From a virus, in IMG/VR virus record IMGVR_UViG_3300034112_001564, positions 8,420 to 72,419 of that record: a stretch of DNA of 64,000 nt, one strand, 5' to 3'. Positions 43,003 through 64,000 of the stretch are shown here, piece by piece. The notes beneath the pieces are model-generated. The model saw nothing but the letters and a program-made list of their open reading frames with translations, was not told where the DNA came from and did not search any database. Every line of letters starts with the position of its first letter. Within the stretch, counting starts at the first letter, position 1. Made by a program: the position numbers and the translations under genes.

Positions 43003-44078
43003 CAGGTAAACCAGCGTATTCCGAAGTTCGAGAAATTGCTGCCAAACGCCATTTCTGGCTGGATGCAGATGCGGTTGATCAGTACCCTTGGGTTCGCAGA
43101 CGGCGACCTTGGCGTGCCGTCGTCGTTCAGCGCCACGGGCTGTGCGGCGGGGCGTTGAACGTAGCCGCCGTCGCCTGCGGGGACCGTGACCATTGCCCTC
43201 GCCTTCTGCTGCTCAGTGCCAATGGCGAGCACTGGGAATGACCCGCCGACCAGCCATACCTTGCCTTCCCTGTGCTCAAGCGAAAGCGATCTCTGGTCTA
43301 CGTCTCCGCGGGAAAGGCCGCTGTTGTAGATGTTAAACCCCGTCTGCGGGACGGCCATATCCCAGCCGATTGCCTGGAAGCCGTGGCGGGTGAGTGTCCA
43401 GTGCGCCCTGACGGCAAACCCGAACGTCACCTTGAACCCCCTAAACGTCGTGTTGCCGAACTGCTCGACAACAGCGTTCGACGAGATGCTCTGCAACATG
43501 CAGCAATGGACGCCGATGGAGAGGTTGCTGAACGTGAACTGGTCGTTGTTCACATACCCGCAATAAGCAAGCAACTGGCTCATGTCGCTCGCCGAATACT
43601 GGTCGATGTTGATGTTCACGACCGGCTCGAGGCGAGTCACGCCATCGACGAGGTCTCCAACGGGATTGGCGGCCGGCACCCACGCCCCCGACGCGCCGCC
43701 CGTCACCGGAGCACCGCCCCACGCGGCGATCTCCGTCAGGGACGTAGTCATCGAATACATCGCCGGCCGGACGGTTGGCTCCTGAAGCCCAGGGTCGGTG
43801 CCACCGACGCTCGGGTTGCTGCGGTACTGGGCCGTGACGATGCGGACCAGCCGGCTCTCGCCATCCGCCTTCACGTCCAGGCTGACGCAAGGGATGGAGT
43901 TCTCGGAGCCAAGGGCGTCGCCGATGTTGACGCCGATTGCTTCCGCAATGTTGAACGACTCGTTTGGTGAGTTGAGCAGGATTTTCCACGTCCGCGTTGC
44001 CTGATCGGCAAGCTGCCCGCCATCGGCACTGCGGCTGAAGGATTTGCCCTGCGCGAGTTCTGATACGAGCTTCGGCAT
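43002..44078 (-). CDS. distal tail/baseplate protein
   Basis: 358 aa immediately after the tape measure; TAATG coupling. Confidence 0.6.
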   Translation of the reverse strand: MPKLVSELAQGKSFSRSADGGQLADQATRTWKILLNSPNESFNIAEAIGVNIGDALGSENSIPCVSLDVKADGESRLVRIVTAQYRSNPSVGGTDPGLQEPTVRPAMYSMTTSLTEIAAWGGAPVTGGASGAWVPAANPVGDLVDGVTRLEPVVNINIDQYSASDMSQLLAYCGYVNNDQFTFSNLSIGVHCCMLQSISSNAVVEQFGNTTFRGFKVTFGFAVRAHWTLTRHGFQAIGWDMAVPQTGFNIYNSGLSRGDVDQRSLSLEHREGKVWLVGGSFPVLAIGTEQQKARAMVTVPAGDGGYVQRPAAQPVALNDDGTPRSPSANPRVLINRICIQPEMAFGSNFSNFGIRWFT

Positions 44079-47000
44079 TACAGCAGGACTCCTGGGTTAC
44101 CTTCTTTGATCGCCCTAACGACCTCGTCCAGCTTGTCCGTCTGCTTCCGCAGCTCCGCGAGATTCACATCCTTCGCCGAGTCGTCGCCTCGGAGAAGCCT
44201 GTTGAGTTCGCTCTGGCCCTGGCTCGTCGACACGTCGGAGACGTTGAGGGCGGCGCGGGACGGGCCTTGGAGCAGGGCGTTCTGCCGCTCCTCTTGAAAC
44301 TGCTGGAGCATCGGGGCGACCTGCTCCATCTGGTTCTGGATGGCTTGGCGGAGGAAGGCTTGCGGGTTCTCGCCCTTGAGCAGCATATCGAGGGCATTGG
44401 CGTTAATGTCCGCACCCGCCCCCTCGGTGAATTCTTTGCGAAAACGCTCGCGGTCAGTCATGCCGAGATCGCGGCCTCGCAGGGCGCGGTCTCGGTCGTT
44501 CTGGATCATCCGCTCGATGTCGATGGCCTTCTGCTCATCGCGAGTGCCGTCGGCAATCATCAAGTCTCTTTCGGCGAGCATTCTGCGGCTGTCCTTTTGC
44601 CTCGCAATCCGCTCGTCCTTCTCTCTCTGCGTCAGCCCAACGCTCGCCTCTTTTTCGGCAAGCGCCGCGAGTCTCTCGTCATTCGCCGCGATCAACCTGT
44701 TGTTGGCTGCGAACAGCGGGTCTTGCTCTATTTCCTTTCGTTTGTTGTCCAGATCGTCTTGCAGCTTCTGGGCTAGCTCGCGGTCAGCACGAAGTTGCGC
44801 GTCGGCCGCGTTACGATCTGTGCGATTCTGCTCGGTCGGGTTGTTGATGTACCTCTCCTGGGCCTCATTCGCCTGACGCTCGCTGTCGGCGATGATCTGG
44901 TTCGCGGCGTCCATTCGCCTCTTGAAGGTCGGGTCTTCGGCGGCCCGCTGCCGGCTCTTTTCAAGCTCCTTCTCGCGGGCAGCGATGCCGTTGTTAATGG
45001 CGTCAAGCTGCTTTCTCTCTGCCTCTGTGAGGTTGCGGGCGAGGTGCTCGCGTTGGCGCATAAGCTCAATCTCGCGCTTCCTGGCTGCGTCAAGCTCATT
45101 CTGTTCAGCCGGATCAAGAGACCCAATCCTTGCTTTGGCCTCAAGGTCTGCCCGCCGCTGCGTAATGGCTTCAAACTCTTTGTTGATGCCCTGCATTCGC
45201 GGGTCGTTCTGCACCACGCCTCGCCGAATGTCCAAATCCACCTGAGCCTGCGCCACGCGAGCGCGGTCGTCGATTAACCTTCGCTCCGCATCGTCGCGAG
45301 ACTGGCCGCTGCCAGCCCGCAGGGGGTTCTCTTCAAACGCCTTCTGTGCGGCGTCTGCCCCTTGCTCGGATCGCTGCACCGCAGACTCGCCGACCTTGCG
45401 AATGCGGGTCAGCGCGGCCTCGACGGCGACGGCTGCTTCGGCGAATGCCGCAGCGGCCTCCGAGGCGCTCTGGGCGGCCTCAAGCTCTGCCTCTGCGGCC
45501 TTGATTTCTGCGTCAGACCCCTTTGCCGTCGCAACCTCGAGCTGCCCGCGAGCCTCAATCTCTCGGTCGATTGCGGCCTCAATGTACGCGGTCGTTCTAA
45601 TGCTATATTCGTCGCCTGCAAACCGCTCGTTTCCTTGAATCGACGCCAATGCGGCCGTCGTCCGCTCGCCGCCAAACGTGCGGCCGAGCCGCGTTTCGCG
45701 AGAGCGGAGGCGAATGCCAGCCCCCTCTGCCTCGACTTGGTCGATATTCGCCTTGGCCTCGTCTACCTTGGCCCGCTTCTTGTCAGGGTCGGTTTCCTTC
45801 TGGGCTTCCTCGAGCGATACATAGGCTTCTTTCAGCTTCTTGGCATTCGCATCAAGCTCACGCTGGAACGCTGCGGCATTCGGCACGCCCCTGCGAATCG
45901 CCTCCGCAACGTCCTCTTGGGCTTGGCGAATCTGGGCCGCGGGGCCGCGGGAGGACTCGGCGATTTCGTTAGCAGTCCTATTGATTTCCCTGAGGAGCGG
46001 AGCGCTCAGGGAGCCGAGGACAAGACGGAGTTCTGCGATCTCCTTTTTTGCCGTTGCCGCCTCGTTTGATGTCAAAAGCCCGCCTTCGATCTGCGTCGAC
46101 AGTTCCTTGATGCGAGCATCAACCTGCTCCCTCGCCTCGCTGACGCTCCCCGCCAACGGAACGGACGCAGCCCGTTCCATGAACGGCGCGGCTGCTCGAG
46201 CGGGAGCAAATGGGTCGTCGGGATTACTCGCTCCCTCGTCTCTCGCGGCGGCCACGGCCTGTGCTTCCAGAGACTCCCGCAACCTTTTCTGAATCTGACC
46301 AAAGTCTGGCGGCGGCGCGGAGACGGCGCGGTCGGCGGCGTCCCGCTCGCGTCGCCTGGAGTCCTCCAGTTGCCTCTGAAGCCCGACGATCTCGCCAACG
46401 TCTGTGCTCTTTTCGATATCATCTTGGAGCTTCCGCTGCTCGGCCCGCTCCTTGATCACTTCGGGATCGAAGTCGGCTACGTTATTTCGGATCGCCTCGT
46501 TCTGCTTCTTCCGAATGTCCTCCATCTGCCTCGAGAACTCTGCGGCCTGCTCGCCGCCGGCAGAGAAGGTGCCGCGCGACATCGCGTCGCCAAGCGACCT
46601 GAACGCCTGCGCCAAATCCTCGACAAGGCTCTTTTGTCGTGCCAGGGCTTCGTTGAGCGCCTTCGTCTGGTCTTCCGCCGACCGGCCATTGTTCGCCCAC
46701 TTAATGAGCCCGACGGCCGCCTGCCCCGCGATCACGGCACCCAGGCCGACGAACAGGCCCGTCGTTCCGCCGACTATAAAACCAAGCTGGGTGATGTTGT
46801 TGCTGACGGCGCGAAGCTTGAATTCAAGGCCGCCGGTAGAAGACATGAAGTCGTCTACGGCGAATATGGCTTGGTTAAGACCGAGGGCAAACTTGTCAGC
46901 GCCGGCTCGACCAACGTCGCCGATGCCCTTGACGAATGAAGCAGCTTCTGCCTTGCTCTTGAACAAGCCAGCGGCAAGGGCAGCCTCTCCAATCTTCTCT

Positions 47001-50000
47001 GCGAGCTGGTCGGCCTGCTCCTTCGTGGAGGCGAGACCAATGGTACCCTTCCTGGCAGCGCTCTCGACGAAAGCTGCGTACTTGTTGAAGGCGTCGGCGA
47101 CGGGGCCGCTAGCCGCCGCCCCGATGTCCAGCAGCTTGGCCCTGATGAATCCGATCTGCTTTTCTGTGCGAGTGAACGCCGCGGTGTTCAGCGCGTCTCC
47201 AAGCGTGCCGCCGAGCTTGGCGGCCTGCTGCGTTCTGGTCAGCGCCCGCTCAAGGCCAGCGACCTTCTTTGCGACTGCATCGATCTCCGCCGCAGTTGAC
47301 GATGGGCCAAGCCCCTTAAATGCGTCTCGAACCTTGTTGATCGCCGGAATCAACTGAGCCTGCAACGGCGTCGGCAGCTTTTCAAGGCTGGTCTGGAGCG
47401 ATACGACATTAGCTTGGAGGTTGGCGTATCCACGAGCGGCTGTGCCGAAGTCTGCTCCAAGAACGTCCACTGGCGGTTTCGGCGGTTTCGGCGGCGGTGC
47501 CGCCGCGATCGCTGCGTCCCGCAACTGGCCCGCACGCTGGCCGGCAAGCCTCGCAGCCGCCTCGTTGCCAGCATTCGCGCCGACGAACGTCTCGATCTTG
47601 GCGATGTTCTTCTCGCCGATGGCTTTCATCGGGCCGTCAAGTTTCGCGACCGCCGCCTTGGCCTCGGCAAGGTTTTTCTTGAGGATATCGATGGGCTGGC
47701 TCGGATTCGCGCCGTCTCCGATGGCCGCCATCGCAGCCTTGAGGTCATCTGCCGCCTTCTTCGCCTGCAACTCCTTGTCGACGAGATCGACGAACACCTT
47801 GATCAGCGGCGCGCCGAAGTCCGCGTTACCAAGCCCCGCGATGGCCGCGTCCTTGGCGGTCGTCACCCTCGCCAAGGCGGCGGGGTCGAGGCTGCCGGCT
47901 CTGGCGATGGTGCTACGCAGCTCGCCCTCGGCCTGCGCCCTGTTCTGCGGCAGTCCCGTGAACTGGAACGCGGCGGACTCCTTGAGGGCGTCGATGCTGG
48001 CCTTCAGGTCATCCGTCTTCTTCTTGGCGTCTGCGGTAGTGAGGTTGAACTTCTTGTCCTGGGCGACCTTGAATGCGATCTGGTCAAGAACGTCGTTGTA
48101 CTTGTCCAAGTCGCCCAATTGTCGCGCCATTGCCGCGTCTTCTAGGAGCGGCTTGTAGTTCTGACGCTGTGCGCGGTCTAGGCCGACGATGTCGCCTTCT
48201 AGCTGCCCTCGGCGGCCGTCTGCCTGCTCCATGTTCTGCGGACGGCCGGTGATGACGAAGGCGGCGCGCTCGCGCATTGACGTGATCTTCGCCGTGATCT
48301 CGTCAGCCTTTCTCTGCGCCTCGGCGGTGTCAATGGTGACCCTGATTTCTTTTTCCGCGACCTCCTGAGCCTCGCCGAGCTTCTTGATAACAAGATCAAG
48401 CGACAGTTGCGCTGGCCCCGTCGGGAGGCTATCAGCAATCACTGCTTGCAGCTTCGCGTACCGAACCGTGGCCTCCTGCGAAAGCCTGTTGACCTCCACG
48501 AGCGACTCGACAATCCTCGGGTTTGCCTGAATCGCCGAGGCCGGCAGCGCCGCTGCTTTGTCGCCGATAGCCGCTCCGCGGTCCAAAGACTCGGACAGCC
48601 CGGGCTGGTCAAAGAAAAGCTCCCTGCCGGTCTTGATCTTCCCGACCTTCGCCGACGCCTCGGCCAATCGCGAGACCGACGCCACGACCTGATCGACATC
48701 CTGCTTTATGCCGACGAACGTGGCCTCAATTGCCTTGGCGGGAGCGACGCCGTCATCGATCAGTCTTGCCAGCGACTCAAGATCGTTTTGCACGCTTGAG
48801 AGCGCAGGCAGGAAACCAGCCTGAACCTCTCTGGTCAGCGTACCGAACTGCTGCGTGGCTGCCGCGATAGGCTTTGACAGCTCCTCCGACTGAGACACCA
48901 TCTGCCGCATCTTCGTCGTCGCGGCCGTCAGGTCAGAGCGGCCAAGCTCTTCCATGACGCGAGGCAGTTTGCCGAGTACCGCCCCCGCGGCCTCGGCCTT
49001 CTTGGCGACATCGTCAAGCGTCTGAATGTCGACGTTCACGCCGAACTCAGCGGTGACCTTTTTGCCAAGTTGGCGATTCAGCTTGCCGAGCGTGCTTTCT
49101 GCCTCTGTCAGCTCGTCGTACTTCGCCTTGATGTCGACGACGCGCCCGCTGGCCTTGGCCTTCTCCAGAGCGGCCGTCAGCCTGTCGACCCTGTCCTGCG
49201 CCTCGGCGATCTGTGCCTTGAACTCGTCTGTCGATACACTGATCTTGGCGACCCTGGCCTGCTTCTTTTCAAGCGAATCGATCTCCTCCGAGATGCCGTC
49301 GATCACCGCGCGGACCTTTTGAAGCTCTCGTTCATCACCGCGAACGCGAATGGCCTTCGCCTCAAGGGATGCCCGCTTGCTGTTCAGCGCATCAAGTTGT
49401 TCGTTGATCGCGTCGAGTTCGCGCGAACCGCCGCCGCCGGCTGCGGCCTGATCCTGCAACCTCTTCAAGGCCGCCGTAGCCTTGGCAAGCCGCCCCTCGA
49501 GCTTCTGCACCGCGGCGTCATCGACGGGGACGGTAACCTTGCCACCGCTGTCGGCCGCGGACTTGATCTCCTGCTTCAGCGCCTGAATCCGATCTTTGGC
49601 CGATTCGACATCCGCCGCCACCTTCATAACAGCGGGCGACGACCTGATCTGCTCACGAAGCTCGTTGATCTTCTCCAGGCCGCCGACGCGGGTGATGATC
49701 TCCACGTCCTTCGACGTAAGGCCGTTGATGGCATCGCGGAATTCCGTGATGCTCTTCATTCCGCTCGTCTTCAGGACGATGTCGATCTGTCGCTCGTTGA
49801 GACCTTGCAGCCGCCGCTGAAGGGCGTCCACGTCTCCGATGAGACCCTTGAAGCCCTTGAACGATAGCTTCATCGACTCGGCGGCCCGCAGAGACCGCTC
49901 GACTTTCTGGAGGGGCGTGTAGATACCCTCCAGAGCCCTAGCAGCCTGAGTGGACGCCGATGTCAGGTTGCCCTGCACCCGGCTGGCGAAGTTGGCGACT

Positions 50001-50089
50001 TCTTTCGCAGACTTCGCCAGCTTGCTGTCGAAGTCTCCCGTGCTCGCCGAGACAACTGCACTGATCTTGCCGAGGTAGCCGTTTGCCAT
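44078..50089 (-). CDS. tail tape measure protein (2003 aa)
   Basis: long Ala/Glu/Lys/Arg-rich helical ORF after the tail chaperones; central hydrophobic segment. Confidence 0.9.
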   Translation of the reverse strand: MANGYLGKISAVVSASTGDFDSKLAKSAKEVANFASRVQGNLTSASTQAARALEGIYTPLQKVERSLRAAESMKLSFKGFKGLIGDVDALQRRLQGLNERQIDIVLKTSGMKSITEFRDAINGLTSKDVEIITRVGGLEKINELREQIRSSPAVMKVAADVESAKDRIQALKQEIKSAADSGGKVTVPVDDAAVQKLEGRLAKATAALKRLQDQAAAGGGGSRELDAINEQLDALNSKRASLEAKAIRVRGDERELQKVRAVIDGISEEIDSLEKKQARVAKISVSTDEFKAQIAEAQDRVDRLTAALEKAKASGRVVDIKAKYDELTEAESTLGKLNRQLGKKVTAEFGVNVDIQTLDDVAKKAEAAGAVLGKLPRVMEELGRSDLTAATTKMRQMVSQSEELSKPIAAATQQFGTLTREVQAGFLPALSSVQNDLESLARLIDDGVAPAKAIEATFVGIKQDVDQVVASVSRLAEASAKVGKIKTGRELFFDQPGLSESLDRGAAIGDKAAALPASAIQANPRIVESLVEVNRLSQEATVRYAKLQAVIADSLPTGPAQLSLDLVIKKLGEAQEVAEKEIRVTIDTAEAQRKADEITAKITSMRERAAFVITGRPQNMEQADGRRGQLEGDIVGLDRAQRQNYKPLLEDAAMARQLGDLDKYNDVLDQIAFKVAQDKKFNLTTADAKKKTDDLKASIDALKESAAFQFTGLPQNRAQAEGELRSTIARAGSLDPAALARVTTAKDAAIAGLGNADFGAPLIKVFVDLVDKELQAKKAADDLKAAMAAIGDGANPSQPIDILKKNLAEAKAAVAKLDGPMKAIGEKNIAKIETFVGANAGNEAAARLAGQRAGQLRDAAIAAAPPPKPPKPPVDVLGADFGTAARGYANLQANVVSLQTSLEKLPTPLQAQLIPAINKVRDAFKGLGPSSTAAEIDAVAKKVAGLERALTRTQQAAKLGGTLGDALNTAAFTRTEKQIGFIRAKLLDIGAAASGPVADAFNKYAAFVESAARKGTIGLASTKEQADQLAEKIGEAALAAGLFKSKAEAASFVKGIGDVGRAGADKFALGLNQAIFAVDDFMSSTGGLEFKLRAVSNNITQLGFIVGGTTGLFVGLGAVIAGQAAVGLIKWANNGRSAEDQTKALNEALARQKSLVEDLAQAFRSLGDAMSRGTFSAGGEQAAEFSRQMEDIRKKQNEAIRNNVADFDPEVIKERAEQRKLQDDIEKSTDVGEIVGLQRQLEDSRRRERDAADRAVSAPPPDFGQIQKRLRESLEAQAVAAARDEGASNPDDPFAPARAAAPFMERAASVPLAGSVSEAREQVDARIKELSTQIEGGLLTSNEAATAKKEIAELRLVLGSLSAPLLREINRTANEIAESSRGPAAQIRQAQEDVAEAIRRGVPNAAAFQRELDANAKKLKEAYVSLEEAQKETDPDKKRAKVDEAKANIDQVEAEGAGIRLRSRETRLGRTFGGERTTAALASIQGNERFAGDEYSIRTTAYIEAAIDREIEARGQLEVATAKGSDAEIKAAEAELEAAQSASEAAAAFAEAAVAVEAALTRIRKVGESAVQRSEQGADAAQKAFEENPLRAGSGQSRDDAERRLIDDRARVAQAQVDLDIRRGVVQNDPRMQGINKEFEAITQRRADLEAKARIGSLDPAEQNELDAARKREIELMRQREHLARNLTEAERKQLDAINNGIAAREKELEKSRQRAAEDPTFKRRMDAANQIIADSERQANEAQERYINNPTEQNRTDRNAADAQLRADRELAQKLQDDLDNKRKEIEQDPLFAANNRLIAANDERLAALAEKEASVGLTQREKDERIARQKDSRRMLAERDLMIADGTRDEQKAIDIERMIQNDRDRALRGRDLGMTDRERFRKEFTEGAGADINANALDMLLKGENPQAFLRQAIQNQMEQVAPMLQQFQEERQNALLQGPSRAALNVSDVSTSQGQSELNRLLRGDDSAKDVNLAELRKQTDKLDEVVRAIKEGNPGVLL

Positions 50090-53972: not shown

Positions 53973-54164
53973 TTATCGCCTCTTCTTCGGTGTGTGCTTG
54001 ACGGCCACTTCCGCACGCTCGACGGCCTCGGGGACAGCCTCGGCGGTCTCGACCTCTTCGATCAGCCCGCGGCGGATGAGGATGTCGCACATCCCGGCCG
54101 CCCAGTCCTCGAAGACCTGCCCCTTCTCGTAGCAGTCAAAATTCTGGAGCACGCGGATTTTCAA
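53973..54164 (-). CDS. small protein, ribosomal bL9 N-terminal-like
   Basis: KIRVLQNFDCYEKGQVFE...LIRRGLIE; TTG start with TTGA overlap. Confidence 0.5.
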   Translation of the reverse strand: MKIRVLQNFDCYEKGQVFEDWAAGMCDILIRRGLIEEVETAEAVPEAVERAEVAVKHTPKKRR

Positions 54165-54889
54165 TGAACGTGCCCCCAGGCGCTTTCCGGTGCCTTCTGG
54201 CCGTTCGTCCAGTATTCCGTCGTGTGCTGCTGCACCTTGCCGCCGTCGGCCGTCCTCGAGGGCCATGTGACCATCAGTTCGGCGTGGCCGACGCTGACAT
54301 GCGTGGCGAGGCCCAGCTTGTTGCCGCAGGCGGCCCACGACTTCCAGAACGAGATGTCCTCGTCGGTATGGCCCCCCGTCCACTCTCCCTGGTCGTTCGC
54401 CTTGGCGAGGAACCAGGGCTTCTTCATCTTCTTGAGGCCCGAGGTCCGCAGGAATGTCAGGCCGAAGTGGGCCGTCTCCACGGGCTGCACGACCTTGTTG
54501 AAGAAGTCGCCGTCCACCGTCGTCTTCTGGTCAACGTCACTGCCGGCCAGGGCGAACATCACCGCGTTCGCCTCCCGCTTCGTCTGAAGCGGAGCGATGG
54601 CGTCGTAGCCAGAGTGCAGGAGCAGTGCAAGGAGCGCCTCGACCGTCTTCGCACTGAAGACCGTGTCGTAGTCGATGGTCAGGATCACGTCGTGCGTGTC
54701 GACGACCTGCTCCATCGCTCGCTGAAGGCACTGGCCCCAGAAGGCACCCGTCACCTTGATGGGACTGATGCCATGCGGGGCCAGTGCCGACGAGACACAG
54801 AAGAAATTGTCGGTAAATCCAAGCCGCGGGGTGCTCATCACCGCCGCGACTTTGATTTCCGCTTCGACGTTACCGACTCTGATCAGCAT
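54161..54889 (-). CDS. GT-A (GT2-like) glycosyltransferase in the head module
   Basis: ILTIDYDTVF (DxD), HFGLTFL, KPWF, DEDISFW, VGH. Confidence 0.75.
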   Translation of the reverse strand: MLIRVGNVEAEIKVAAVMSTPRLGFTDNFFCVSSALAPHGISPIKVTGAFWGQCLQRAMEQVVDTHDVILTIDYDTVFSAKTVEALLALLLHSGYDAIAPLQTKREANAVMFALAGSDVDQKTTVDGDFFNKVVQPVETAHFGLTFLRTSGLKKMKKPWFLAKANDQGEWTGGHTDEDISFWKSWAACGNKLGLATHVSVGHAELMVTWPSRTADGGKVQQHTTEYWTNGQKAPESAWGHVH

Positions 54890-54965
54890 GGATCGCTCCG
54901 TGTGTGGAGCGGGCGCGCATCCATGCGCCTTTGTCGGCCATCATGGCCGTCCCGCAGTTCGGGAA

Positions 54966-55391
54966 TCAGCCCTTGACCCAGCCGATGACGCCAGCGTCAG
55001 CCGCCGTCACCGGAGCCTCTTCGCCACGCGACAGACGAGCCGACACCACGGTGTTCACGCTGACCGCGGGGGTCGCCGTGACCTTGAGGTAACGCTTCTT
55101 CGCCTTGGTGTCGATATCGAGCTTCACGATGGCGGCCGACGCGGTGTCGGACACAGCCGGAATCGTGAAGTCGGTGCCGCCGACGAGGCCCGACACGTTC
55201 GAGTAGGACGAGTTGTCATCCGACTCTTCGACCTTCAGCACGCTGGCGAACACCGTCGAGGCGTTGCTCGCCCGCAGCACGTCCACGCTCGCGTGGTCGT
55301 AGCCGAGGGTGTCGATCGTCAGGGTCACTGCGCTGGTGCCGACGGCCGCGGGGACGGAGCCGACAACCTTATCGTTCTGAGAATGGATCAT
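54966..55391 (-). CDS. head decoration/cement protein
   Basis: IDTLGYD...VEESDD...KRYLKV; directly after the capsid gene. Confidence 0.65.
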   Translation of the reverse strand: MIHSQNDKVVGSVPAAVGTSAVTLTIDTLGYDHASVDVLRASNASTVFASVLKVEESDDNSSYSNVSGLVGGTDFTIPAVSDTASAAIVKLDIDTKAKKRYLKVTATPAVSVNTVVSARLSRGEEAPVTAADAGVIGWVKG

Positions 55392-55429
55392 GGTTCTGGG
55401 GTTCTCCTTCTAGAGGGTGTTTGTCAGGC

Positions 55430-56782
55430 TCACGACGCCGCGGACTTGAGAGCAACCACGGGGCCGGCGGTCGTGTTGTCGCCGAGCGAGTGATGAACCA
55501 CGTCGAACCGCATCGTGCCCTGGAGCAGGAGCTGATCGGTCGTGGCGTAGACTTGGTCGTACATCCGCACTGCGAAGTCGCGGCGACGAGCGTAGATGCT
55601 GGAGAGACCCAGGTTCGCGAAGAGAACCTTGACCTTGCCCGGATCGGCACCGAGCGTGCCGTCGAGGACGTGAACGTAGTTCACGGGGAATCCGAGGAAC
55701 TGCTCGGTCACGCCGCCGCCAACCTGCTCGACGGTGTTGCCACCAGCCGCGTAGCGGAGGCGGGCCATCGAGGCAGCAAAGCCGGCCGGCGAGATGTACC
55801 ACGCTGCACCCTGGCGGGCGTAGAGCGGCATCTTGCCGATGACCTTGATGAAGTCGGTCACGGTCAGGGTCTCGAAGCCCGTGGCACCGGCACCGGCAGT
55901 CACGACGCCCGCGTTGTGCGTGCCGTCATTGACCTTCGGCACCACGCCGTAGATTCCGCCCGAAGCCGAGTCGCCCGCGCCGAGCCAGCCGACCAAGTCG
56001 GTCTTGTAGGCCAAGCTCGTCGCGAACTCAGTTGCCACGGCATCAGCGATCGACACGAGAGCGTCTTCCACCACCTCGCTCGACATGCGGGTTCCCACGG
56101 CCAATTTCTTGGCAATGAGCTGCACGTTCGAGTAGGTCGGCTCGCTCTCGCTCACCGCGGTGCCTTCGCCGACGAAGTAGGCCGTGGTGCCCGTGACACG
56201 CTTCGGGATGATCATCGTGTCGCGGGTCATCGTCACCTTCTCGACGTTGCTCGCTGCGAAGGTTCCGAAATTTTCTACTAACCGGATCACGCGAGAAGCG
56301 AACTCCTCTGGGACAAGGGCACCGCCAGAAGCGTTGCTGTTCTCGCCCATCGCGCGGTTCTCGACGCCGTGATCCTTGCACCACCGGAGGTCTTCGGCGT
56401 TCTTGAAGATGTGAGCCCGGAGCCACCGGCCGCAGCGGTAGGCACTCTCGACAGCCTCGGGGCCGTCGTTGAATGCACGCAGGCTGGTGTGATGAGGCTG
56501 GATCGAACGAATCTCGACCTTCTTCTCCTCGACCTTCGCGGCGACTTCGGCCACGGGAGCCGGGGCAGGGGCGGCCTTCTCGACCACGGCCCGCAGTTCG
56601 GCTTCCTTCGCGGCGATCCGCTCCTCGAAGTCCAGGGAGGTCTTCAGGTCGTCGGCCTGAGTGCCGAGCGAGATGAGTTCCTTGGTCTGCTCGGCCGAGC
56701 GATCCTCGATACCGGACAGTTCGGTCATCCGAGCGGCGACAGCCGCGGCACGTTCCTGAAGACGCTTGAGATTCGACGCCAT
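55430..56782 (-). CDS. major capsid protein (HK97 fold, N-terminal delta domain)
   Basis: coiled-coil N-terminus, GGALVPEEF, FVGEG, MSSEVVED, MRFD; AAGGAG RBS. Confidence 0.93.
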   Translation of the reverse strand: MASNLKRLQERAAAVAARMTELSGIEDRSAEQTKELISLGTQADDLKTSLDFEERIAAKEAELRAVVEKAAPAPAPVAEVAAKVEEKKVEIRSIQPHHTSLRAFNDGPEAVESAYRCGRWLRAHIFKNAEDLRWCKDHGVENRAMGENSNASGGALVPEEFASRVIRLVENFGTFAASNVEKVTMTRDTMIIPKRVTGTTAYFVGEGTAVSESEPTYSNVQLIAKKLAVGTRMSSEVVEDALVSIADAVATEFATSLAYKTDLVGWLGAGDSASGGIYGVVPKVNDGTHNAGVVTAGAGATGFETLTVTDFIKVIGKMPLYARQGAAWYISPAGFAASMARLRYAAGGNTVEQVGGGVTEQFLGFPVNYVHVLDGTLGADPGKVKVLFANLGLSSIYARRRDFAVRMYDQVYATTDQLLLQGTMRFDVVHHSLGDNTTAGPVVALKSAAS

Positions 56783-56929
56783 GTTGGCCTGCTCCTTGGT
56801 TTGAGCCGGCCAATCGCACAATGCGGCGGCCGGCGGGTGATCCCGCTAGCGCGCCGCGTGCTTGAATCCTCAAGTCGCTCGCACTGCCCCTCACGACATC
56901 CGTCGTGAAGCAATGTCTCTACCTGTAGA

Positions 56930-58603
56930 CTACTGACCCTGACGTGCGCCGTGCAACTGAGTCCGAAGGATTGTCGCCTTCAGGTTCGCGAGCTTCACAG
57001 CGATATCGACGCTTTCCTGCTCCGCACGCATGTCCTCGGCGGGCTTTTCCTCAACCGGAGCAGGCTCCGGCTTCTTTTCTTCTTGGCTCATACGCTCCTC
57101 GGGAATGATCCACAGCTTGCACACGGCGTCGGCCGCGATGGCACCTTGAACGATGTAGCACCGGCCCTCTTCGCCCTCGAAGAAGACGCAGTTGCTGCAC
57201 TTCACGCCATCCCTGGCGAACGGATTGTCGGTCATGTAGTGAGCGTCGTTCTGGCTCCAGGGGCCGTACTCCTCGGCAATGCCCTCATACGACTCGGCCA
57301 GGGTGAGGTTCGCAGCCGACAGGACGCTGCCGTACTCTTCCTCAATGGCCTCGCCGTCTTCGCCGATGTCTCGCTTGCCGCTCTCGCGTTCCATCTGCGC
57401 GACCTTGGCCTCACTCCACCGCCACGCCGGGTCACCGCCCCAGAGCATCCAGGCGGTGTAGCCAGGGGTTTCCTCGCCCTTGTTCGACCAGCCGGCCTTC
57501 TTGTCGACCTTGTGGCGGCGGAACCACGCCCGCATCTCGCGAACGTGCTCAGGCGTCAGCTCCTCGCGAGCCGCGATCTTGCCGGCACGGGCCACCGTCT
57601 CCGGCTTGAGGCCGTCGCCCGACCGACCAGCCTCGTGCAGGGCCAGACCGCGCTTCGCGGCGGCGGCCATGCCCGCCGTCGGGGTCAGATTCACGTCGGA
57701 GGCGGCTCTTTCCTCGGAAACAGGGGCGGTTTCAGCCGGGATGTCCACAGACGGGGCTGTCTCATCGGACGATGAGGCAGCACGCCGATCCACCCACTTC
57801 TCGCCAGCGTCGCCGCCGGCCAATTGCCACTCGATCCAGGCCGGCGAGCCCGACCAACCCGTCACTTTCGCCGCCAAACACCGCTCGTAGACGCCGGAAA
57901 GGTACGAAACCTCCTCGACACTGACGATTTCGCGGTTCGCGACTCGTTCGGCGATGCACAGGAGGCGAGAATCGATGTTTTCGTGCCTCTGAGCCAGCTT
58001 CAGACCTCGTTTTGACGCATTCGCCATCGTCTGGATGGGCCTGAACGACTCGCCGAGGGCCATTTCGATGGCTCGGCGGCTCACAACCACGCTGGAGGAG
58101 TCATATGCAGGCCGAACCACAGGCCCAACGTCCTCGAGCAGGCCGATCGCTTTCACTTCACGCCTGCGAATGCCACGCTGGTTGTCCGTCGACCACGAAT
58201 CGCCACCATCTCGCTTGATCGCGAAGGCGAAACTGGACCCGACAACCGTCCGGTCCTTCACCCACTCGATCACGTCGCGGCCGATGGAGGTGTTTTCGTT
58301 CGGCGTGATCTCGTAGCGAAGCCCATACGGGTCTTTCGTGAGCTTCATCGACCCGTTTCCGGTGCGGCCGAGGAGCAGATTGCGGTCGTGATTGAACACA
58401 CCGATGACATCGGGGTTCTCGGCGAGCACTTCGTCGAACGCATTCGGGTGAATCGTCTCGACGAAGCCGCCGAGGTTGCGACTTTCGGCGTTAAAGACGG
58501 CGGCATAGCCCGAAATCACGGGCTTTTTCTCGCCGTTCCCCATGTCGCGGTACTCGACCGTCGCGTCCGAAACCGTCGTGCGCCGCTCAATCTCGTTGCT
58601 CAT
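56930..58603 (-). CDS. HK97-family prohead protease with two repeated helical domains and a HiPIP-like domain
   Basis: GYAAVFN, FNHD, GSSFAF, DVGPVVRPAY; C-terminal CSNC...C...GAI...CKLW. Confidence 0.9.
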   Translation of the reverse strand: MSNEIERRTTVSDATVEYRDMGNGEKKPVISGYAAVFNAESRNLGGFVETIHPNAFDEVLAENPDVIGVFNHDRNLLLGRTGNGSMKLTKDPYGLRYEITPNENTSIGRDVIEWVKDRTVVGSSFAFAIKRDGGDSWSTDNQRGIRRREVKAIGLLEDVGPVVRPAYDSSSVVVSRRAIEMALGESFRPIQTMANASKRGLKLAQRHENIDSRLLCIAERVANREIVSVEEVSYLSGVYERCLAAKVTGWSGSPAWIEWQLAGGDAGEKWVDRRAASSSDETAPSVDIPAETAPVSEERAASDVNLTPTAGMAAAAKRGLALHEAGRSGDGLKPETVARAGKIAAREELTPEHVREMRAWFRRHKVDKKAGWSNKGEETPGYTAWMLWGGDPAWRWSEAKVAQMERESGKRDIGEDGEAIEEEYGSVLSAANLTLAESYEGIAEEYGPWSQNDAHYMTDNPFARDGVKCSNCVFFEGEEGRCYIVQGAIAADAVCKLWIIPEERMSQEEKKPEPAPVEEKPAEDMRAEQESVDIAVKLANLKATILRTQLHGARQGQ

Positions 58604-59073
58604 GCCGTCACCTGATTCGCGAGGTAGTTATCCAGACCGATCTGCTCGATCACACGCTGCACTGCTTCGATTTTGGCGATCGCCTCTTCGCTGCCCTCAA
58701 GCAGCATGACGAAGGCCGATGCCGATATCTCGTCCCCGGCCGCCCGACACGCCAGCACCCCGGCCCTCTCGGCCTCCGCCGCAGCCGTTTCCAGCGAAAG
58801 ATTCGCCGCGAGGATGCCCTCGTAGTCGTGCCTGGGCCAATCGGGCTGGTCGTGGTCGTAGGTCGGCTGAACGTCGTAGTATTCGAGCCGGGACTGCACC
58901 TCGTGCAGGTGGCCCCGCTCTTCCTCGGCGTCAGCGCGGCAGCCGGCTGCCAGCTTGCCGTACCCCCAGCGGTCGAGATGCTCCGCCTGCGACTGGTAGT
59001 TCTCAATCGCCAGCAGATGCAGCCGAACGGAGGCTTGGAGGGCGTCAATCACGCCTTCAGGTGCTTGCGGCAT
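58600..59073 (-). CDS. bacterioferritin-like protein with degenerate ferroxidase centre
   Basis: full-length match by eye to Bfr: VIDAL, WGYGKL, EERGH, LSLE, IEQIGLDNYLANQ. Confidence 0.85.
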   Translation of the reverse strand: MPQAPEGVIDALQASVRLHLLAIENYQSQAEHLDRWGYGKLAAGCRADAEEERGHLHEVQSRLEYYDVQPTYDHDQPDWPRHDYEGILAANLSLETAAAEAERAGVLACRAAGDEISASAFVMLLEGSEEAIAKIEAVQRVIEQIGLDNYLANQVTA

Positions 59074-60700
59074 CGGTCGTCAGGTGCTTGTCGCACCAGT
59101 CCTCGGTGACTGATTCGTACTTCTGGCCGCTGCGATGACACTCAAGCAGGAGTTCTCGCGAGCGGGTCATCCACGTTCCCACAAACTTGTCGATGTCTCT
59201 GCCGGTAGCCTGTGCGGACTCGCGCAGCTCTTCCCGCATCCGGCCGGTCATTTGATCAAGCCACGCAGCAAGCTTCTCGGGCTTATTGCGTCGCTCAAGG
59301 ACGCCGTCAGCCTCGATGGCGGCGAGCCGCCGGAGAGAGGTCTTGAAGACGACTTCGGCTCCTGCGATCTGGCGGGCGTCGGGGGCGTCTTCTGCGTCGG
59401 GGGCATCGCCAACCGTCGGTTCCGGCGGCCCGTCAACGCCGCCCTGGGGAGCGGGATTCTGCGGCTTCTGGCCGGTCGGGTTCTCAAGCGTGAACGCCTC
59501 CAGCAACTGCATGTTGACCTGAATGAACCGCTTCTTCCCGACGCCGCCGGGGAGCGGGTTGTAGCCGATCTGAGCGCGAATCTCGTCGATGTCGAGGGCT
59601 CCGAGGTTCGCCATCTCCCGAATGAACTGCGACCTCGCCGCGTAGTCGCCGGCCATCAGCGAGTTCAGGTCGAACTGGCAGAAATACTGCTTGTCGTCGA
59701 CCACGAGGTCTCGCCGGCACGCCATCTCCCACCGCCGGCACCAGGGCAAGAGCGAGAACGTGACGAAGTCGATCGCCTGCTGCTCCACGGTGCTGTGGCG
59801 GACATCAGACAAGTCGCCAATCAAATACTGTGGCACGCGATAGCACCGTGCCACTTCGGCCAACTGGAAGCGCCTGGTCTCAACCAGTTGGGCCGTGTCG
59901 TTTCTGACCTCGACCTGCTTCCGGTGGAAGCCGAACGGCATGACGACGGTTTTGTATGCCTTGTCCGGCCCCTGGTGGGCATCGTTCCACTGATCCTTGA
60001 ACCGGGCGAGCACCTCTGGCTTGTGCGGCTGATCGGTTTCGATGTACGTCCCGACCTGCGCGCCGTGCCCGAAGAAGCTGCCGGAGTGTAGCTCAGTTGC
60101 TCTCGCCAGACCGATCGCATCGCGGGACAGGCTCGTTGGGATAAATCCTGTCACCCCATCTGACGAGAGCCATCGCAAATGAAAAATCTCGTCCTGCCGA
60201 TACTCCGTCGGGTCGGGCGTCGGCTGAATCAGCGTCGCGGGCTCTCGGTAGTAGTACCTCAGCTTGCCGTTGGTCAGCCGCTTGACCTCCATCCGCGACG
60301 GATGCAGCGGGATCAACTCAGTCACCGCGCCGTTCTTGCCGCCCTTGATGTAGGCGTAGGCGTTGCCCCACAGGAGCAGCCAGCTTTGCATCAACTCGCG
60401 GAACTCAAAGCCCGTCATCCACGAGTTCGGCTGGTAGGCGATCACCTCGTGCAGGTGCTGCTCCTCGGCGATCTCCTTGCCGCCGCCGGGAAGCCGCCGA
60501 TACACGTTGAACGGAAGGCTGGCGAGCGACTCGGACAGCACGCGGACGCAGGCGAGAACGGCCGTGCATTCCAGGGCCGTTTCCGGCGAGACGGAGACCC
60601 CCGACGCAGTTCGCCGGGTGCTGGAAATCTCCTCGAAAATGCGGGAAAGATTACCGCGAAGCTCGATCAGATCGGAGACTTCCTCGTCGACTCTGTCCAC
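59057..60700 (-). CDS. portal protein (HK97 family) with C-terminal extension
   Basis: AVLACVRVLSESLASLP, LLWGNAY, EIFHLR, VARCYRVP, EIRAQIGYNP. Confidence 0.93.
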   Translation of the reverse strand: MDRVDEEVSDLIELRGNLSRIFEEISSTRRTASGVSVSPETALECTAVLACVRVLSESLASLPFNVYRRLPGGGKEIAEEQHLHEVIAYQPNSWMTGFEFRELMQSWLLLWGNAYAYIKGGKNGAVTELIPLHPSRMEVKRLTNGKLRYYYREPATLIQPTPDPTEYRQDEIFHLRWLSSDGVTGFIPTSLSRDAIGLARATELHSGSFFGHGAQVGTYIETDQPHKPEVLARFKDQWNDAHQGPDKAYKTVVMPFGFHRKQVEVRNDTAQLVETRRFQLAEVARCYRVPQYLIGDLSDVRHSTVEQQAIDFVTFSLLPWCRRWEMACRRDLVVDDKQYFCQFDLNSLMAGDYAARSQFIREMANLGALDIDEIRAQIGYNPLPGGVGKKRFIQVNMQLLEAFTLENPTGQKPQNPAPQGGVDGPPEPTVGDAPDAEDAPDARQIAGAEVVFKTSLRRLAAIEADGVLERRNKPEKLAAWLDQMTGRMREELRESAQATGRDIDKFVGTWMTRSRELLLECHRSGQKYESVTEDWCDKHLTTDAAST

Positions 60701-60701
60701 G

Positions 60702-62204
60702 CTACAGCACCATGAGGTTTGGTTCGTCGGTATTGCCGTGGGTTTCGCTCGAGGCAATGCCCAGGGCCATGATCAGTGAGACCGCGCCGTCGATGCGGGC
60801 CGTGGAATGACTGTGCTTCTTGGTCGGCTTGATATTCCCGGCGTCGTCTACCTTCACCTGCACATTCGACATCTGCCACGCCAAGACGGGGTTGCCGCCG
60901 TGACGCAGTTTCTTGGAGATTGTCAGCGTCTCGAGCAGCTTCGACGGCGCTGACATGCTCGCAAAACCTTGTCCAAACGGCTTAACGTCGATTCCCTCCG
61001 CCGTGAGCTGCGTCGTCAGATGCACTGCGTTCCAGCGGTCAATCGCAATAGACCGAACCGCATTCTTCTCGCAAAACGAGAGAATGTAGTCGCGGACCAC
61101 GTCGTAATCCGTTATGTCGCCATCTGTTAGTGTAACAAAACCGTCCTTCGCCCAGGCTTGATACGGCACCCTGTCCTCGCGACCACGCTTGATCGCGTTC
61201 TCCTCTGGGATGAAGAAGTGAGCGTGGATGTCGTAGGTGCCGTCGGCGTCCGGCCAGACCGCCACGAACGCCGTCGTATCGAAGGTGCTGGCGAGGTCGA
61301 CGCCGCACCAGCACGGCCGCCCCGCCGTCGGCCTGAGCGGAGCGTTGTTGGCATCCCAGGCACCGTGCCTGATCCACTTCGTTTCCGATTTTTGCCACTG
61401 GTTCAAGTGGAGGGTTCGGAAAACGACTTCGTCGGTGGGTGAGGACTTGGCTTTTTCCGAAAATTGCCTGAAATAGTCGGGTTTTAGCGTGATTCCGTAG
61501 TTCGGGTTGGCCTTCTTCCAAGTCTCCTCGATGAACGGGTCGTCCTCGGGATCGGCGGCGTATATGCAGGGCAGGAACGAGTCGTCCTTCAGGACGCCGT
61601 CGCGAATCTTGAGTGCCCGCTGCCAGTCCTTGTAGCACGGGCCGTCCATGTCGGTGCCGGCCGTCGTGATGTAGATGGTCAGCGGCTGGCTTCTGGCACC
61701 CATGCCGGTCTCCAGAACGTCGATCAGCTCGCGGTCGGGGAAGACGTGCATTTCGTCAATGAGGCAGCAGCTTGGGTTGTAACCGTGTTTCGTGGCACTT
61801 TCGCTGCTGATGCACAGCATCGTGGAGTTCTTCTCAGGGAAGACGATGCTATTTCTGTAGATGCGGCATCTCTTCATCAGTGACGGACAACCCTCGACGA
61901 ACTGCTTTGCAGCCGTGTGCAGGAGCGAAGCCTGCGCGCGGTCGCCGGCCGCGACGATCACCTCTGCCCCCTCGTCGTCGCAGCACATCATGTAGATGCC
62001 GATGGCGGCGCAGAGGGCTGATTTACCGTTCTTGCGGGGCAACGCGAGCAGGCTTGTCCGATACTGCCGCAGGCCGTCGGCTTTCTTCGTGTTGAAGAGC
62101 TTGTCGAGATATTCGTCCTGCCAGCGCTCGAGGACGAAAGGCTTCCCCGCAAAGTCGCCGCGACTGTGCTTCAGCAGGCCGATGAAATCGCGGATATCAA
62201 CCAC
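60702..62204 (-). CDS. terL: terminase large subunit
   Basis: PRKNGKS, IDEMH, ITTAG, GVDLAS, RIDG. Confidence 0.95.
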   Translation of the reverse strand: MVDIRDFIGLLKHSRGDFAGKPFVLERWQDEYLDKLFNTKKADGLRQYRTSLLALPRKNGKSALCAAIGIYMMCCDDEGAEVIVAAGDRAQASLLHTAAKQFVEGCPSLMKRCRIYRNSIVFPEKNSTMLCISSESATKHGYNPSCCLIDEMHVFPDRELIDVLETGMGARSQPLTIYITTAGTDMDGPCYKDWQRALKIRDGVLKDDSFLPCIYAADPEDDPFIEETWKKANPNYGITLKPDYFRQFSEKAKSSPTDEVVFRTLHLNQWQKSETKWIRHGAWDANNAPLRPTAGRPCWCGVDLASTFDTTAFVAVWPDADGTYDIHAHFFIPEENAIKRGREDRVPYQAWAKDGFVTLTDGDITDYDVVRDYILSFCEKNAVRSIAIDRWNAVHLTTQLTAEGIDVKPFGQGFASMSAPSKLLETLTISKKLRHGGNPVLAWQMSNVQVKVDDAGNIKPTKKHSHSTARIDGAVSLIMALGIASSETHGNTDEPNLMVL

Positions 62205-62679
62205 GCTTGGCTAGAAGAGCGTCCATCGGGTCTAGCACGACCTTCTCGGCGTGATAGCCCATGCGGGTGCGGTCGGCAGGCGTTAGGCCGAGAACAGTCT
62301 CAAGCTGCCGCAACTGCTCGTGGCAGTGGTTACTCTGCGACTGCCACTTGTTCGGTCGGCTGAACCGGAGGGAGCCGTCGGGGGCCGTCACCTCGACCCA
62401 ACCGGAATCCATCTTGGCAAGCTGCATTTCCGCCTCTCGCCAGCGATCCCAGATGATCGAATACCGCGAGATCACCTCGACATCGCTTTCGGCCAGGGTG
62501 CCCATTCTCTGGGTGTAGCCGCAGACAAGGTTGAACATCTCCCTGGCTGCCGGCCGCATCCAGTCGGGGGCGGACGGCAGAGAGTGCAGGGGGGTGCCAA
62601 GCTCCTCGCGGTAGTTGGCTTCCTCAGAGCCTCTCAGCTTGAGGAGGTGCTTCGGCGTTGGTGCTGGGCCTCTTGCCAT
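62197..62679 (-). CDS. terS: terminase small subunit (P27 family)
   Basis: RGPAPTPKHLLKLRG...LGLTPADRTR. Confidence 0.88.
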   Translation of the reverse strand: MARGPAPTPKHLLKLRGSEEANYREELGTPLHSLPSAPDWMRPAAREMFNLVCGYTQRMGTLAESDVEVISRYSIIWDRWREAEMQLAKMDSGWVEVTAPDGSLRFSRPNKWQSQSNHCHEQLRQLETVLGLTPADRTRMGYHAEKVVLDPMDALLAKRG

Positions 62680-62681
62680 GC

Positions 62682-63704
62682 CTACGAGTATTGCACAGTA
62701 GGCAATGGCCCCGCAAAGGAGTCGGATTTCTTTATGTTGCACGCCCAGCAGGCGGCCTGGACGTTACTCGGTCTGTGGCCTGGGCCGTCGGGACCGTAAG
62801 ACAGCGGCACGATGTGATCGATCGTGGGGCTGCGGGGATGCGGAGTCTCGCTGCCATCGATCTTTGTCCACCGCGGAAGCAGCTCGCACTGGCATATCTG
62901 GCACGTCCAGTTGTCCCGGCGAAGGATCGACGTTTTCGAGAACGACTCGTAGTGGCACCCGTACTTAACGCATCGAAACTTGTGGCCGCCAGCGTTGCCG
63001 CCGACATTCAGCGGGTCGCCTGCGTCATTGCCCCAGGTTCCGAACCACACAGCGATCTGCTCGTCAAGCGTTGCCCCCGGCCGCCTTGTCAGTCTCGCGC
63101 ATGGGAGGCGAAGCCGCCTCGCCTCAAATGCGCATTCCCTGGAGCAGTATTTTCCGGCATTTCGCCCGGTTCCTCGTTTTCGGAACGGCTTCTGGCAACA
63201 GAGGCACTGCCGCTGCGCAGCACGGCTCTTGTTTCTTTTGATCGTCTCGGGTGCCCTCGCCAGCGCGACACAGCTCTGGCTGCAAAACTTGCTCCCAGAG
63301 TGCCTCTGCTTGAAGCTTTTTCCGCACTGCTGGCAAGGCTTAACGCATGGGCGGTTGGGGTATCGGCACTCGTCGCTACAGTATTTTGAGTTCTTAAACC
63401 GAACGAAGCCCTCACCGCATCTCAGGCATGTCCCGTGATGCGTCGGCTTCTTTGTCTTTCGCAGCTTGCGGCACTGATCGGAGCAGACTTCCCGGCGTCT
63501 GCCGACACTACTTGCGTCCTGCGGTACGTCTTTGCCGCAGACAGAGCACGGCACGACCGCGGGCTTCGGCGACCGCGACGAAGCTCGGCAGCAGGCCGCA
63601 GAGCAATACGTCCTGGGCTTAACGCCAAGGGAGGGCGGCACAGAACCGCCGCATACGGGACAACTTTTGCCTTCCTTGGCGTTTTCTCCGGCGTCTCCAC
63701 GCAC
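62682..63704 (-). CDS. HNH endonuclease with multiple CxxC...CSxxC zinc fingers
   Basis: five CxxC-(F)-YCSxxC units; C-terminal RDNWTCQIC...TIDHIVPL...NVQAACWACNIKK. Confidence 0.85.
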   Translation of the reverse strand: MRGDAGENAKEGKSCPVCGGSVPPSLGVKPRTYCSAACCRASSRSPKPAVVPCSVCGKDVPQDASSVGRRREVCSDQCRKLRKTKKPTHHGTCLRCGEGFVRFKNSKYCSDECRYPNRPCVKPCQQCGKSFKQRHSGSKFCSQSCVALARAPETIKRNKSRAAQRQCLCCQKPFRKRGTGRNAGKYCSRECAFEARRLRLPCARLTRRPGATLDEQIAVWFGTWGNDAGDPLNVGGNAGGHKFRCVKYGCHYESFSKTSILRRDNWTCQICQCELLPRWTKIDGSETPHPRSPTIDHIVPLSYGPDGPGHRPSNVQAACWACNIKKSDSFAGPLPTVQYS

Positions 63705-63779
63705 GGGTCATAGGCTACCAGAACAGAGTGTTTTTGCCAAACCGTCGGATCGTGGTCGGCGGCCAGCAAATTGGTTAGG

Positions 63780-63860
63780 CCGACCGGGGCGCACGGAGCG
63801 GAGGACATGCGGTCTGCCCTACAAAGCCGACCGGCGCAAGCCCCCCCATCCCCCCCGCAA
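63780..63860 (-). other. putative cos (packaging) region
   Basis: non-coding G-runs followed by AGACCGCATGTCCTCC upstream of HNH-terS, resembling HK97-type end regions; cut site not determinable. Confidence 0.35.
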
Positions 63861-63887
63861 GCATCCGACGGCGTCCCCTCGCAGTCT

Positions 63888-63944
63888 CGACGACGGCAGG
63901 GGCTCAGGCATCGGCAGGCAGGCGACGACGGCAGGGGCTCAGGC
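63888..63944. repeat. 22-bp direct repeat x2 plus partial third copy
   Basis: CGACGACGGCAGGGGCTCAGGC at 63888 and 63923. Confidence 0.8.
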
Positions 63945-64000
63945 TCGATGACGGCGGGTGATTTTCTCACGATGCTAACTGTCCGAATAATCAAACGGCC

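Follow-up and report, generated by a model that had tools for sequence, protein, structure and literature searches.

A bacterioferritin-like gene and a HiPIP-like protease domain are separate optional additions to the head operon of an uncultured tailed phage

Why would the head operon of a tailed phage carry homologues of two iron proteins? This question is raised by a 64,000-nucleotide stretch of DNA (the window), which covers bases 8420-72419 of the 72,419-bp IMG/VR virus record IMGVR_UViG_3300034112_001564, a record with direct terminal repeats that is rated complete. On its minus strand, a full-length bacterioferritin (Bfr)-like open reading frame (ORF; 58600-59073) lies between the portal gene (59057-60757) and the prohead protease gene (56930-58603), and the protease contains a four-cysteine domain resembling high-potential iron-sulfur proteins (HiPIPs). 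The Bfr-like ATG lies 17 nt inside the 3' end of the portal gene, and the Bfr-like stop codon overlaps the protease start as ATGA. The ORF map, Pfam and the PDB profiles agreed with the initial annotation that both are homologues of iron proteins in one co-oriented, overlapping head operon. That annotation had gone further and proposed a module linking head maturation to iron or redox state, a packaged iron or ferritin cargo, or a ferritin fold used as a scaffold. Our analysis confirmed the observation and partly supported the interpretation. The new elements are a phage-specific remodelled ferritin and a widespread HiPIP-like domain on carriers of the capsid interior, neither discussed in the literature searched.

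We compared the 157-aa Bfr-like protein with Pfam and with PDB sequences. The results showed a match to Pfam Ferritin (PF00210; E 6e-11, 42.9 bits against a cut-off of 24.5), and all 48 PDB matches at E<=1 were bacterioferritins, ferroxidases or a Bfr-type ferritin. The best of them, 5zur_A (1.8e-11), aligned end to end (query 8-156 with chain 7-155), and this full-length alignment together with the above-cut-off PF00210 match indicates a ferritin-like four-helix bundle. In the alignments with PDB chains and with 33 family members, the protein showed no added segment at either terminus relative to Bfrs. The protein is acidic (pI 4.5), and dN/dS was 0.105-0.186 in six of six pairs with relatives, indicating purifying selection. 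Dps-like DNA binding was rejected, given the pI and the absence of a basic tail.

The metal ligands of bacterioferritins were mapped onto the window protein, and the mapping was checked by a profile search of 1.84 billion cluster representatives. The results showed that the ferroxidase ligands E51, H54 and E94 are kept as E52, H55 and E95, that the other three of the six are replaced (E18 by H19, E127 by S128 and H130 by A131), and that the axial heme ligand M52 is replaced by R53, giving the signature H19, E52, R53, H55, E95, S128, A131. The representative search yielded 1357 matches at E<=1e-3, 362 at <=1e-10 and 34 at <=1e-30, and an alignment was made of those among the best 150 representatives with a length of 140 aa or more (136 sequences). 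H19, E52 and H55 with S or T at position 128 occurred in 33 of the 34 best full-length representatives, and Met53 or His131 in none of these 34; the canonical E-E-M-H-E-E-H appeared in the same alignment columns from about E 1e-22 (40 rows). In the alignment of 33 relatives, H19, H32, R35-W36-G37-Y38, E52, H55, R81-H82-D83, E102, D114 and G127-S128 were invariant, the C-terminal E-helix was largely invariant (G146, N149, L151), and position 53 was never Met. The phage clade was monophyletic against five canonical Bfrs (SH-aLRT 100). Judged by sequence, these proteins are a distinct subfamily with a bacterioferritin fold that lacks the two features defining bacterioferritins. With no heme Met, and with His19/Glu52/His55/Glu95 in place of the di-iron centre, the protein cannot work as a canonical Bfr. 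The invariant His and Glu residues of the remodelled site suggest metal binding.

Compared with bacterioferritins of known structure (5zur, 3uof, 1bcf), the phage proteins share the full-length bundle, the length, the WG motif, the E-helix and the acidic pI. They differ in E18 to H, E127 to S, H130 to A, S or G and the replaced heme Met52; in the added invariant residues H32, R81-H82-D83 (a loop insertion) and E102; and in occurring almost only on phage contigs. We searched one genome from each of 185,579 species with the Bfr query and obtained 15 matching loci, of which 11 were examined and four further Roseibium loci were left out. The phage signature was present in five of the 11, two of these being short contigs with the window's TerL, portal and protease genes. 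The remaining six keep all six ferroxidase ligands, four as a heme-less E-E-R-H-E-E-H and two as the canonical E-E-M-H-E-E-H. These results indicate that the subfamily is close to phage-restricted. PHROGs held no family for the protein, and tblastn against 50,697 deposited phage records gave no match.

The HiPIP-like domain occupies residues 441-510 of the protease (57074-57283), with C469, C472, C482 and C495 and a conserved Tyr456 and Trp498. Pfam HIPIP was the sole match on the window domain, with E 0.003 and 18.2 bits, below the curated threshold of 22. The same family was the best match for all four family domains scanned and the sole match for two. We searched the PDB with profiles of 18 and 100 family sequences. 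The four best matches of the former (3h31_A, 2.2e-4) and the three best of the latter (3h31_A, 3e-4) were HiPIPs; every Cys of the profiles aligned to a cluster ligand of 3h31, 1hpi and PioC, and 1isu was also matched. The four cysteines were invariant in the 100 sequences, in the C-x2-C...C...C spacing of HiPIPs. AlphaFold gave a poor model from 18 sequences (pLDDT 49.9) and a model with pLDDT 90.8 from 100 sequences, which was used. Foldseek returned 16 PDB matches at E<=10, and all 15 matches listed were HiPIPs; the best was 3h31 (probability 1.00, TM 0.62/0.59, rmsd 1.7 A, E 0.046), the weak E-values being due to the small size of the domain (about 60 residues). The model thus predicts a HiPIP fold, and the domain probably binds a [4Fe-4S] cluster.

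A HiPIP is by definition a small free periplasmic electron carrier. The window domain shares with the HiPIP of Rhodothermus marinus (3h31) and with PioC (6xyv) the four-Cys spacing, the Tyr before the first Cys, the Trp after the last and the predicted fold, but it is an internal part of a 557-aa cytoplasmic head protein and not a free, secreted carrier. Standalone phage forms of 89-125 aa also exist (220 matches). Counts here and below come from the best 80 loci per IMG/VR search, seeded with Bfr, HiPIP or portal queries. The HiPIP-like domain was encoded in at least 539 IMG/VR stretches, against 56 for the Bfr-like gene. The best 80 of these at least 539 loci (among them L058-L133) contained 71 distinct carrier ORFs, comprising 39 S78 proteases, 15 portals and 17 others. 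On the portals the domain is a C-terminal extension, in ORFs of roughly 800-1500 codons. A Pfam scan of ten carriers identified three portals, S78 proteases, an S49 protease, an S78-capsid fusion, a Zeta-toxin protein and a DUF5824 protein. The HiPIP profile named one phage homologue in UniRef and two more in BFVD, one of them from Synechococcus phage S-SRM01, and BFVD held fusions with ParB/Srx-like, HAD-like, SppA, XkdF and helicase proteins. A tblastn search with the domain found no match among the 50,697 phage records.

Portal C-termini and prohead proteases are both located inside the capsid. In uncultured phages the domain is fused to portal and protease proteins and to Zeta-toxin, ParB/Srx-like, HAD-like and helicase proteins, a feature shared with capsid-delivered multidomain proteins, and the carrier range resembles that of polyvalent, capsid-delivered phage proteins. 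Capsid-targeting signals are documented for T4 IPIII and P1 DarB in passages of PMC9024508. The main text of a survey of polyvalent proteins (PMC5512222) does not contain the words HiPIP, iron-sulfur, ferritin or cysteine; its supplements may use another name.

We divided the window protease into an S78 domain, two helical domains, the HiPIP-like domain and a C-terminal helix. The S78 domain (aa 21-180; 58064-58543) matched Pfam Peptidase_S78 (7.3e-37, 127.5 bits against a cut-off of 21), and the protein matched PHROG 80; with its gene between portal and capsid, this identifies a prohead protease. FNHD (from aa 70) is conserved, and GSSFAF (from aa 122) is GSSFAF or ASSFAF family-wide; we take both motifs to be catalytic. 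Helical domain 1 (aa 186-280; 57764-58048) has no Pfam family. Helical domain 2 (aa 300-415; 57359-57706) belongs to PHROG 2859 and has no Pfam family. By tblastn, helical domain 2 occurred in 34 isolated-phage records, under capsid, minor-head and protease genes of cyanophages, roseophages, vibriophages and one actinophage, and its nearest ESM Atlas clusters were viral and unnamed, with no family. The initial annotation had the protease ending in a four-Cys HiPIP-like domain. Profiles and predicted fold bear out the HiPIP-like part, but the domain is followed by a tail of 47 residues (aa 511-557; 56933-57073) that bears a conserved amphipathic helix (aa ~530-551). This helix aligned in 37 of 37 protease rows reaching the C-terminus, one of 38 rows being cut by a contig end.

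The window protease resembles HK97 gp4-type S78 proteases in its S78 domain, its gene position between portal and capsid and its C-terminal segment, and differs from them in that its two helical domains and its HiPIP-like domain add about 370 residues between protease and tail. In HK97, work attributed to Duda and colleagues in 2013 is said to show that the C-terminal segment of gp4 targets the protease to the capsid interior. By analogy, the C-terminal tail of the window protease is a probable capsid-targeting signal. Among relatives, the proteases of L005, L012 and L013 (758-761 aa) and of L104 and L170 (810 aa) have some 200-250 additional residues inserted between the helical domains, and that of L047 has a different additional C-terminal segment.

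How firmly the Bfr-like gene belongs to this operon was read from its distribution. The Bfr-seeded search returned 56 loci, of which 49 had the portal-Bfr-protease order and seven had none of the window's head genes nearby. Three of the seven were scanned: in L050 the gene has a UvrD helicase and a DNA methylase as neighbours, in L053 an IMPDH-like enzyme and a glycosyltransferase, and in L031 an integrase. In the Bfr tree, L031 fell within the main head-slot lineage and L050 beside another head-slot lineage. A less biased view is given by the portal-seeded search, which returned 71 loci, ten of them without a scorable junction; 53 unique portal-protease junctions remained, and Bfr was present at 37. 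It was present at 21 of 22 junctions with a portal identity of at least 80%, at 14 of 15 with 70-79% and at 2 of 16 below 70%, and the slot was thus occupied at 35 of 37 unique junctions in the near clade (portal identity at least 70%). Here and in the pooled comparison below, junctions were filtered for a gap of at least 0 nt, which dropped L201 and L202, two loci without Bfr in which portal and protease directly adjoin (gap -3).

We also followed the gene on a tree of portal and S78 sequences with 73 unique junctions (50 with Bfr, 23 without), drawn from loci with near-complete portals only. The results showed at least six gains or losses (shuffled mean 20; 0 of 500 shuffles as low), and Bfr-less phages were nested among Bfr-bearing ones. 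One of them, L161, whose portal and S78 domain are 81% and 87% identical to those of the window, has no Bfr gene; at L161:5091-5240 its portal ORF continues into the last dozen codons of a Bfr E-helix, after which the protease begins with the usual ATGA. This remnant is an in-frame deletion scar. Two Bfr lineages about 55% identical share the portal-protease slot (L039, L044, L062, L154, L155 and others) in phages with portals 77-87% identical to that of the window, which points to cassette exchange by recombination. The portal-Bfr-protease synteny that the initial annotation had wished to see surveyed held well in the near clade but was broken by repeated gains or losses, by the deletion scar and by the 7 of 56 loci outside head modules. 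The Bfr-like protein is not a structural part of the head, since the gene is missing from close relatives whose portal, protease and capsid are the same. These findings indicate that the gene is a well-kept but dispensable cassette that encodes neither a scaffold nor a shell part.

The Bfr-like gene and the HiPIP-like domain were then compared at 86 unique junctions pooled from the Bfr, HiPIP and portal searches. Junctions with Bfr carried the HiPIP-like domain in 40 cases, lacked it in 15 and had an incomplete protease in 6; those without Bfr carried it in 9, lacked it in 13 and had an incomplete protease in 3. All four combinations of presence and absence were thus found, and the consistent co-occurrence of a Bfr-Bfd-type partnership was not. 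On the portal and S78 tree the HiPIP state changed at least five times, and among six independent pairs differing in Bfr it shifted the same way in about one and did not differ in about five. A complex prediction for protease residues 186-557 with the Bfr-like protein (score 0.00, mark 0.32) gave no evidence either way. These results indicate that the two are separate optional add-ons with no association. The iron-protein pair of the initial annotation is thus not supported, and two of the findings that it had named as evidence against its own idea were made in part: Bfr is optional in relatives, and it does not co-occur with the HiPIP-like domain.

The head and packaging module lies entirely on the minus strand. 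It comprises an HNH endonuclease upstream of the terminase genes (62682-63704), the small terminase TerS (62197-62742), the large terminase TerL (60702-62204), the 566-aa portal (Pfam Phage_portal 6.7e-89; PHROG 12, 2e-101), the Bfr-like ORF, the S78 protease and the 463-aa major capsid protein (55430-56821), in which a long N-terminal region of about 165 aa precedes an HK97-type Pfam domain (Phage_capsid 2.4e-25, residues 166-441). Within the scanned interval 54000-64000, no promoter-like site was found on the minus strand, the one terminator-like site on that strand was weak, these numbers equal the chance expectation, and an Rfam scan gave no match. The best match of the portal in deposited phage genomes was 37.7% identical and every match was below 60%. 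With its best deposited match only 37.7% identical, the portal points to a phage with no cultured relative, and by sequence the clade is one without a cultured member. All relatives are metagenomic contigs; two small ones were binned with metagenome-assembled genomes of Solirubrobacteraceae and Microbacteriaceae, which is weak host evidence.

Several other genes of the window were recorded. The HNH endonuclease has a long N-terminal region with about five repeats of a CxxC...C motif, which resemble zinc ribbons. A glycosyltransferase-like ORF (54161-54889, minus strand; Pfam Glyco_trans_2_3, E 1.3e-4, below cut-off) follows the capsid gene and a family-less 141-aa ORF within the head-to-tail module, a further accessory gene in the structural operon. 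The tail region contains very long ORFs at 30858-37154 (2098 aa) and 44078-50089 (2003 aa), both on the minus strand. A 732-aa ORF (1503-3701, minus strand) with intein splicing, Hint and LAGLIDADG matches is an intein-interrupted gene. A tyrosine integrase (24698-25600, plus strand), on the opposite strand to a radical-SAM gene, suggests a temperate lifestyle.

An HK97-fold shell gene near a ferritin-superfamily gene recalls encapsulins with ferritin-like cargo (EncFtn; Mt-BfrB), as treated in passages of PMC11202242. The window differs from these in having portal, terminase and tail genes and a Bfr-like protein without a cargo-loading extension; neither a loading peptide nor a shell without portal and terminase was found. 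The portal, TerL, TerS and tail genes mark this as a DNA-packaging phage, and the encapsulin reading was rejected on the strength of the portal and terminases. Another phage-encoded member of the ferritin superfamily is the ferritin-like DNA-binding protein reported in virion proteomics of phage G in passages of PMC12484599; that protein is Dps-like and from a megaphage, and is set apart from ours by its description only. The initial annotation had supposed the module to be undescribed, and this still stands: in open-access full texts and bioRxiv we found no paper on Bfr or ferritin with a prohead protease or capsid, and none on HiPIP with phage, portal or head.

We favour, at roughly an even chance of being right, an explanation in which the Bfr-like protein is a dispensable late metal-handling accessory and the HiPIP-like domain is prohead cargo carried on the protease, so that the head operon of this uncultured tailed phage would bear two independent iron-related add-ons. 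The Bfr-like protein would keep a ferritin-type cage, which is probably still formed because the four-helix bundle and the C-terminal E-helix are kept. It would be made late, in step with portal and protease, through translational coupling at the observed overlaps, and would bind metal at its 2-His/2-Glu site. In the infected cytoplasm it would most likely act as a metal-binding accessory that buffers iron or oxidative stress; it could limit iron-driven damage during DNA packaging, hold iron for phage Fe-S proteins, or both. The phage demand for Fe-S clusters would come from the HiPIP-like domain, in many copies per prohead, and from the radical-SAM gene (14088-15011, minus strand), another Fe-S enzyme. 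The protease would be tethered inside the prohead by its C-terminal helix and carry the two helical domains and the HiPIP-like domain inward; we infer encapsidation because this helix is conserved and stands in the same position as the HK97 targeting signal.

Several points weigh against this explanation. The HiPIP-like domain scores under the Pfam gathering cut-off, iron binding by the remodelled site is read from residues in an alignment, the targeting role of the tail is drawn from work on HK97, and all family members are known from genes alone. The seeded, limited searches give biased frequencies. The position may matter in itself, as is hinted by the two divergent Bfr lineages found at precisely one and the same slot, and retention in the same slot with gene overlaps at 35 of 37 junctions is tighter than for most accessory genes; such tight retention is also expected of a head-associated protein.

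The last point leads to a quite improbable alternative, in which the prohead takes up a 24-mer of the Bfr-like protein, attached to capsid, portal or protease, as cargo that carries iron or gives protection, a phage counterpart of ferritin-loading encapsulins. It would fit a gene that lies between portal and protease, overlaps both and is kept in 35 of 37 close relatives, and an HK97-type shell. Packaged ferritin also has precedent, because a ferritin-like protein has been reported in phage G particles and passages of PMC11202242 propose encapsulins with an enclosed 24-mer Mt-BfrB. However, the protein has no terminal extension usable as a targeting peptide, nested relatives with the same head genes lack it, one of them with a deletion scar, and members of the subfamily are also found in replication, metabolic and integrase contexts. 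Bfr cages measure 12 nm, and such a cage would compete with DNA for head volume. Packaged ferritin is the less likely case. Moreover, CsCl-banded virions of phage AXL1 were accompanied by host Bfr (passages of PMC9206674), so that ferritin detected in a virion preparation would not in itself be proof of packaging. The same low probability attaches to a broader picture, in which many uncultured tailed phages load a HiPIP-like domain on portal or protease, a remodelled ferritin cage is here made alongside and possibly enclosed with it, virions are iron carriers that deliver a redox-active protein, and the portal-Bfr-protease-capsid order would be a phage-side relative of ferritin-loading encapsulins.

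The retained cage-building bundle, WG motif and E-helix, with catalytic and heme residues lost, could also describe a phage subunit without ferroxidase centre or heme site that joins or mimics host Bfr and alters iron storage or release. Among the best PDB matches is 9bts (chains a and A), which carries both 'Ferritin (Ftn)' and 'Bacterioferritin (Bfr)' as names, in line with mixed Bfr-type cages. Sequence identity with canonical Bfrs is nevertheless low, the host partner is hypothetical, and the subfamily's own invariants (H32, R81-H82-D83, E102) suggest a self-contained function, which leaves this reading unlikely. Far less credit goes to an obligate redox pair in which the Bfr-like protein and the protease HiPIP-like domain exchange electrons or iron in the manner of Bfr and Bfd and tie head maturation to iron or redox state. 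The genes are adjacent and overlapping and the two features co-occur at 40 of the 86 junctions, yet each also occurs without the other (15 and 9 junctions), independent pairs show no association, and the HiPIP-like domain is far commoner (at least 539 stretches against 56). Bfd acts on Bfr through the heme site, and this site is absent. The scaffold of the initial annotation, a ferritin fold that helps portal or prohead assemble without a metal role, would suit the gene position and the translational coupling with the portal. It has next to no chance of being correct: about 165 aa of N-terminal region are already present in the capsid protein itself, the Bfr gene is dispensed with by relatives that have the same head genes, on which ground the scaffold was rejected, and the invariant His and Glu residues at the former metal site favour metal binding.

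Should the HiPIP-like domain prove to hold a cluster and to enter the capsid, iron-sulfur protein would be part of the head in a considerable group of environmental phages (the domain is encoded in at least 539 IMG/VR stretches), and the debated idea of iron in phage particles would gain a specific protein to test. The Bfr-like subfamily is a natural experiment in ferritin chemistry, with the cage scaffold kept, a 2-His/2-Glu site and no heme, and it may show how phages handle iron or oxidative stress during DNA packaging. The natural Bfr-less and HiPIP-less sister phages, one of them with a deletion scar, offer direct genetic contrasts.

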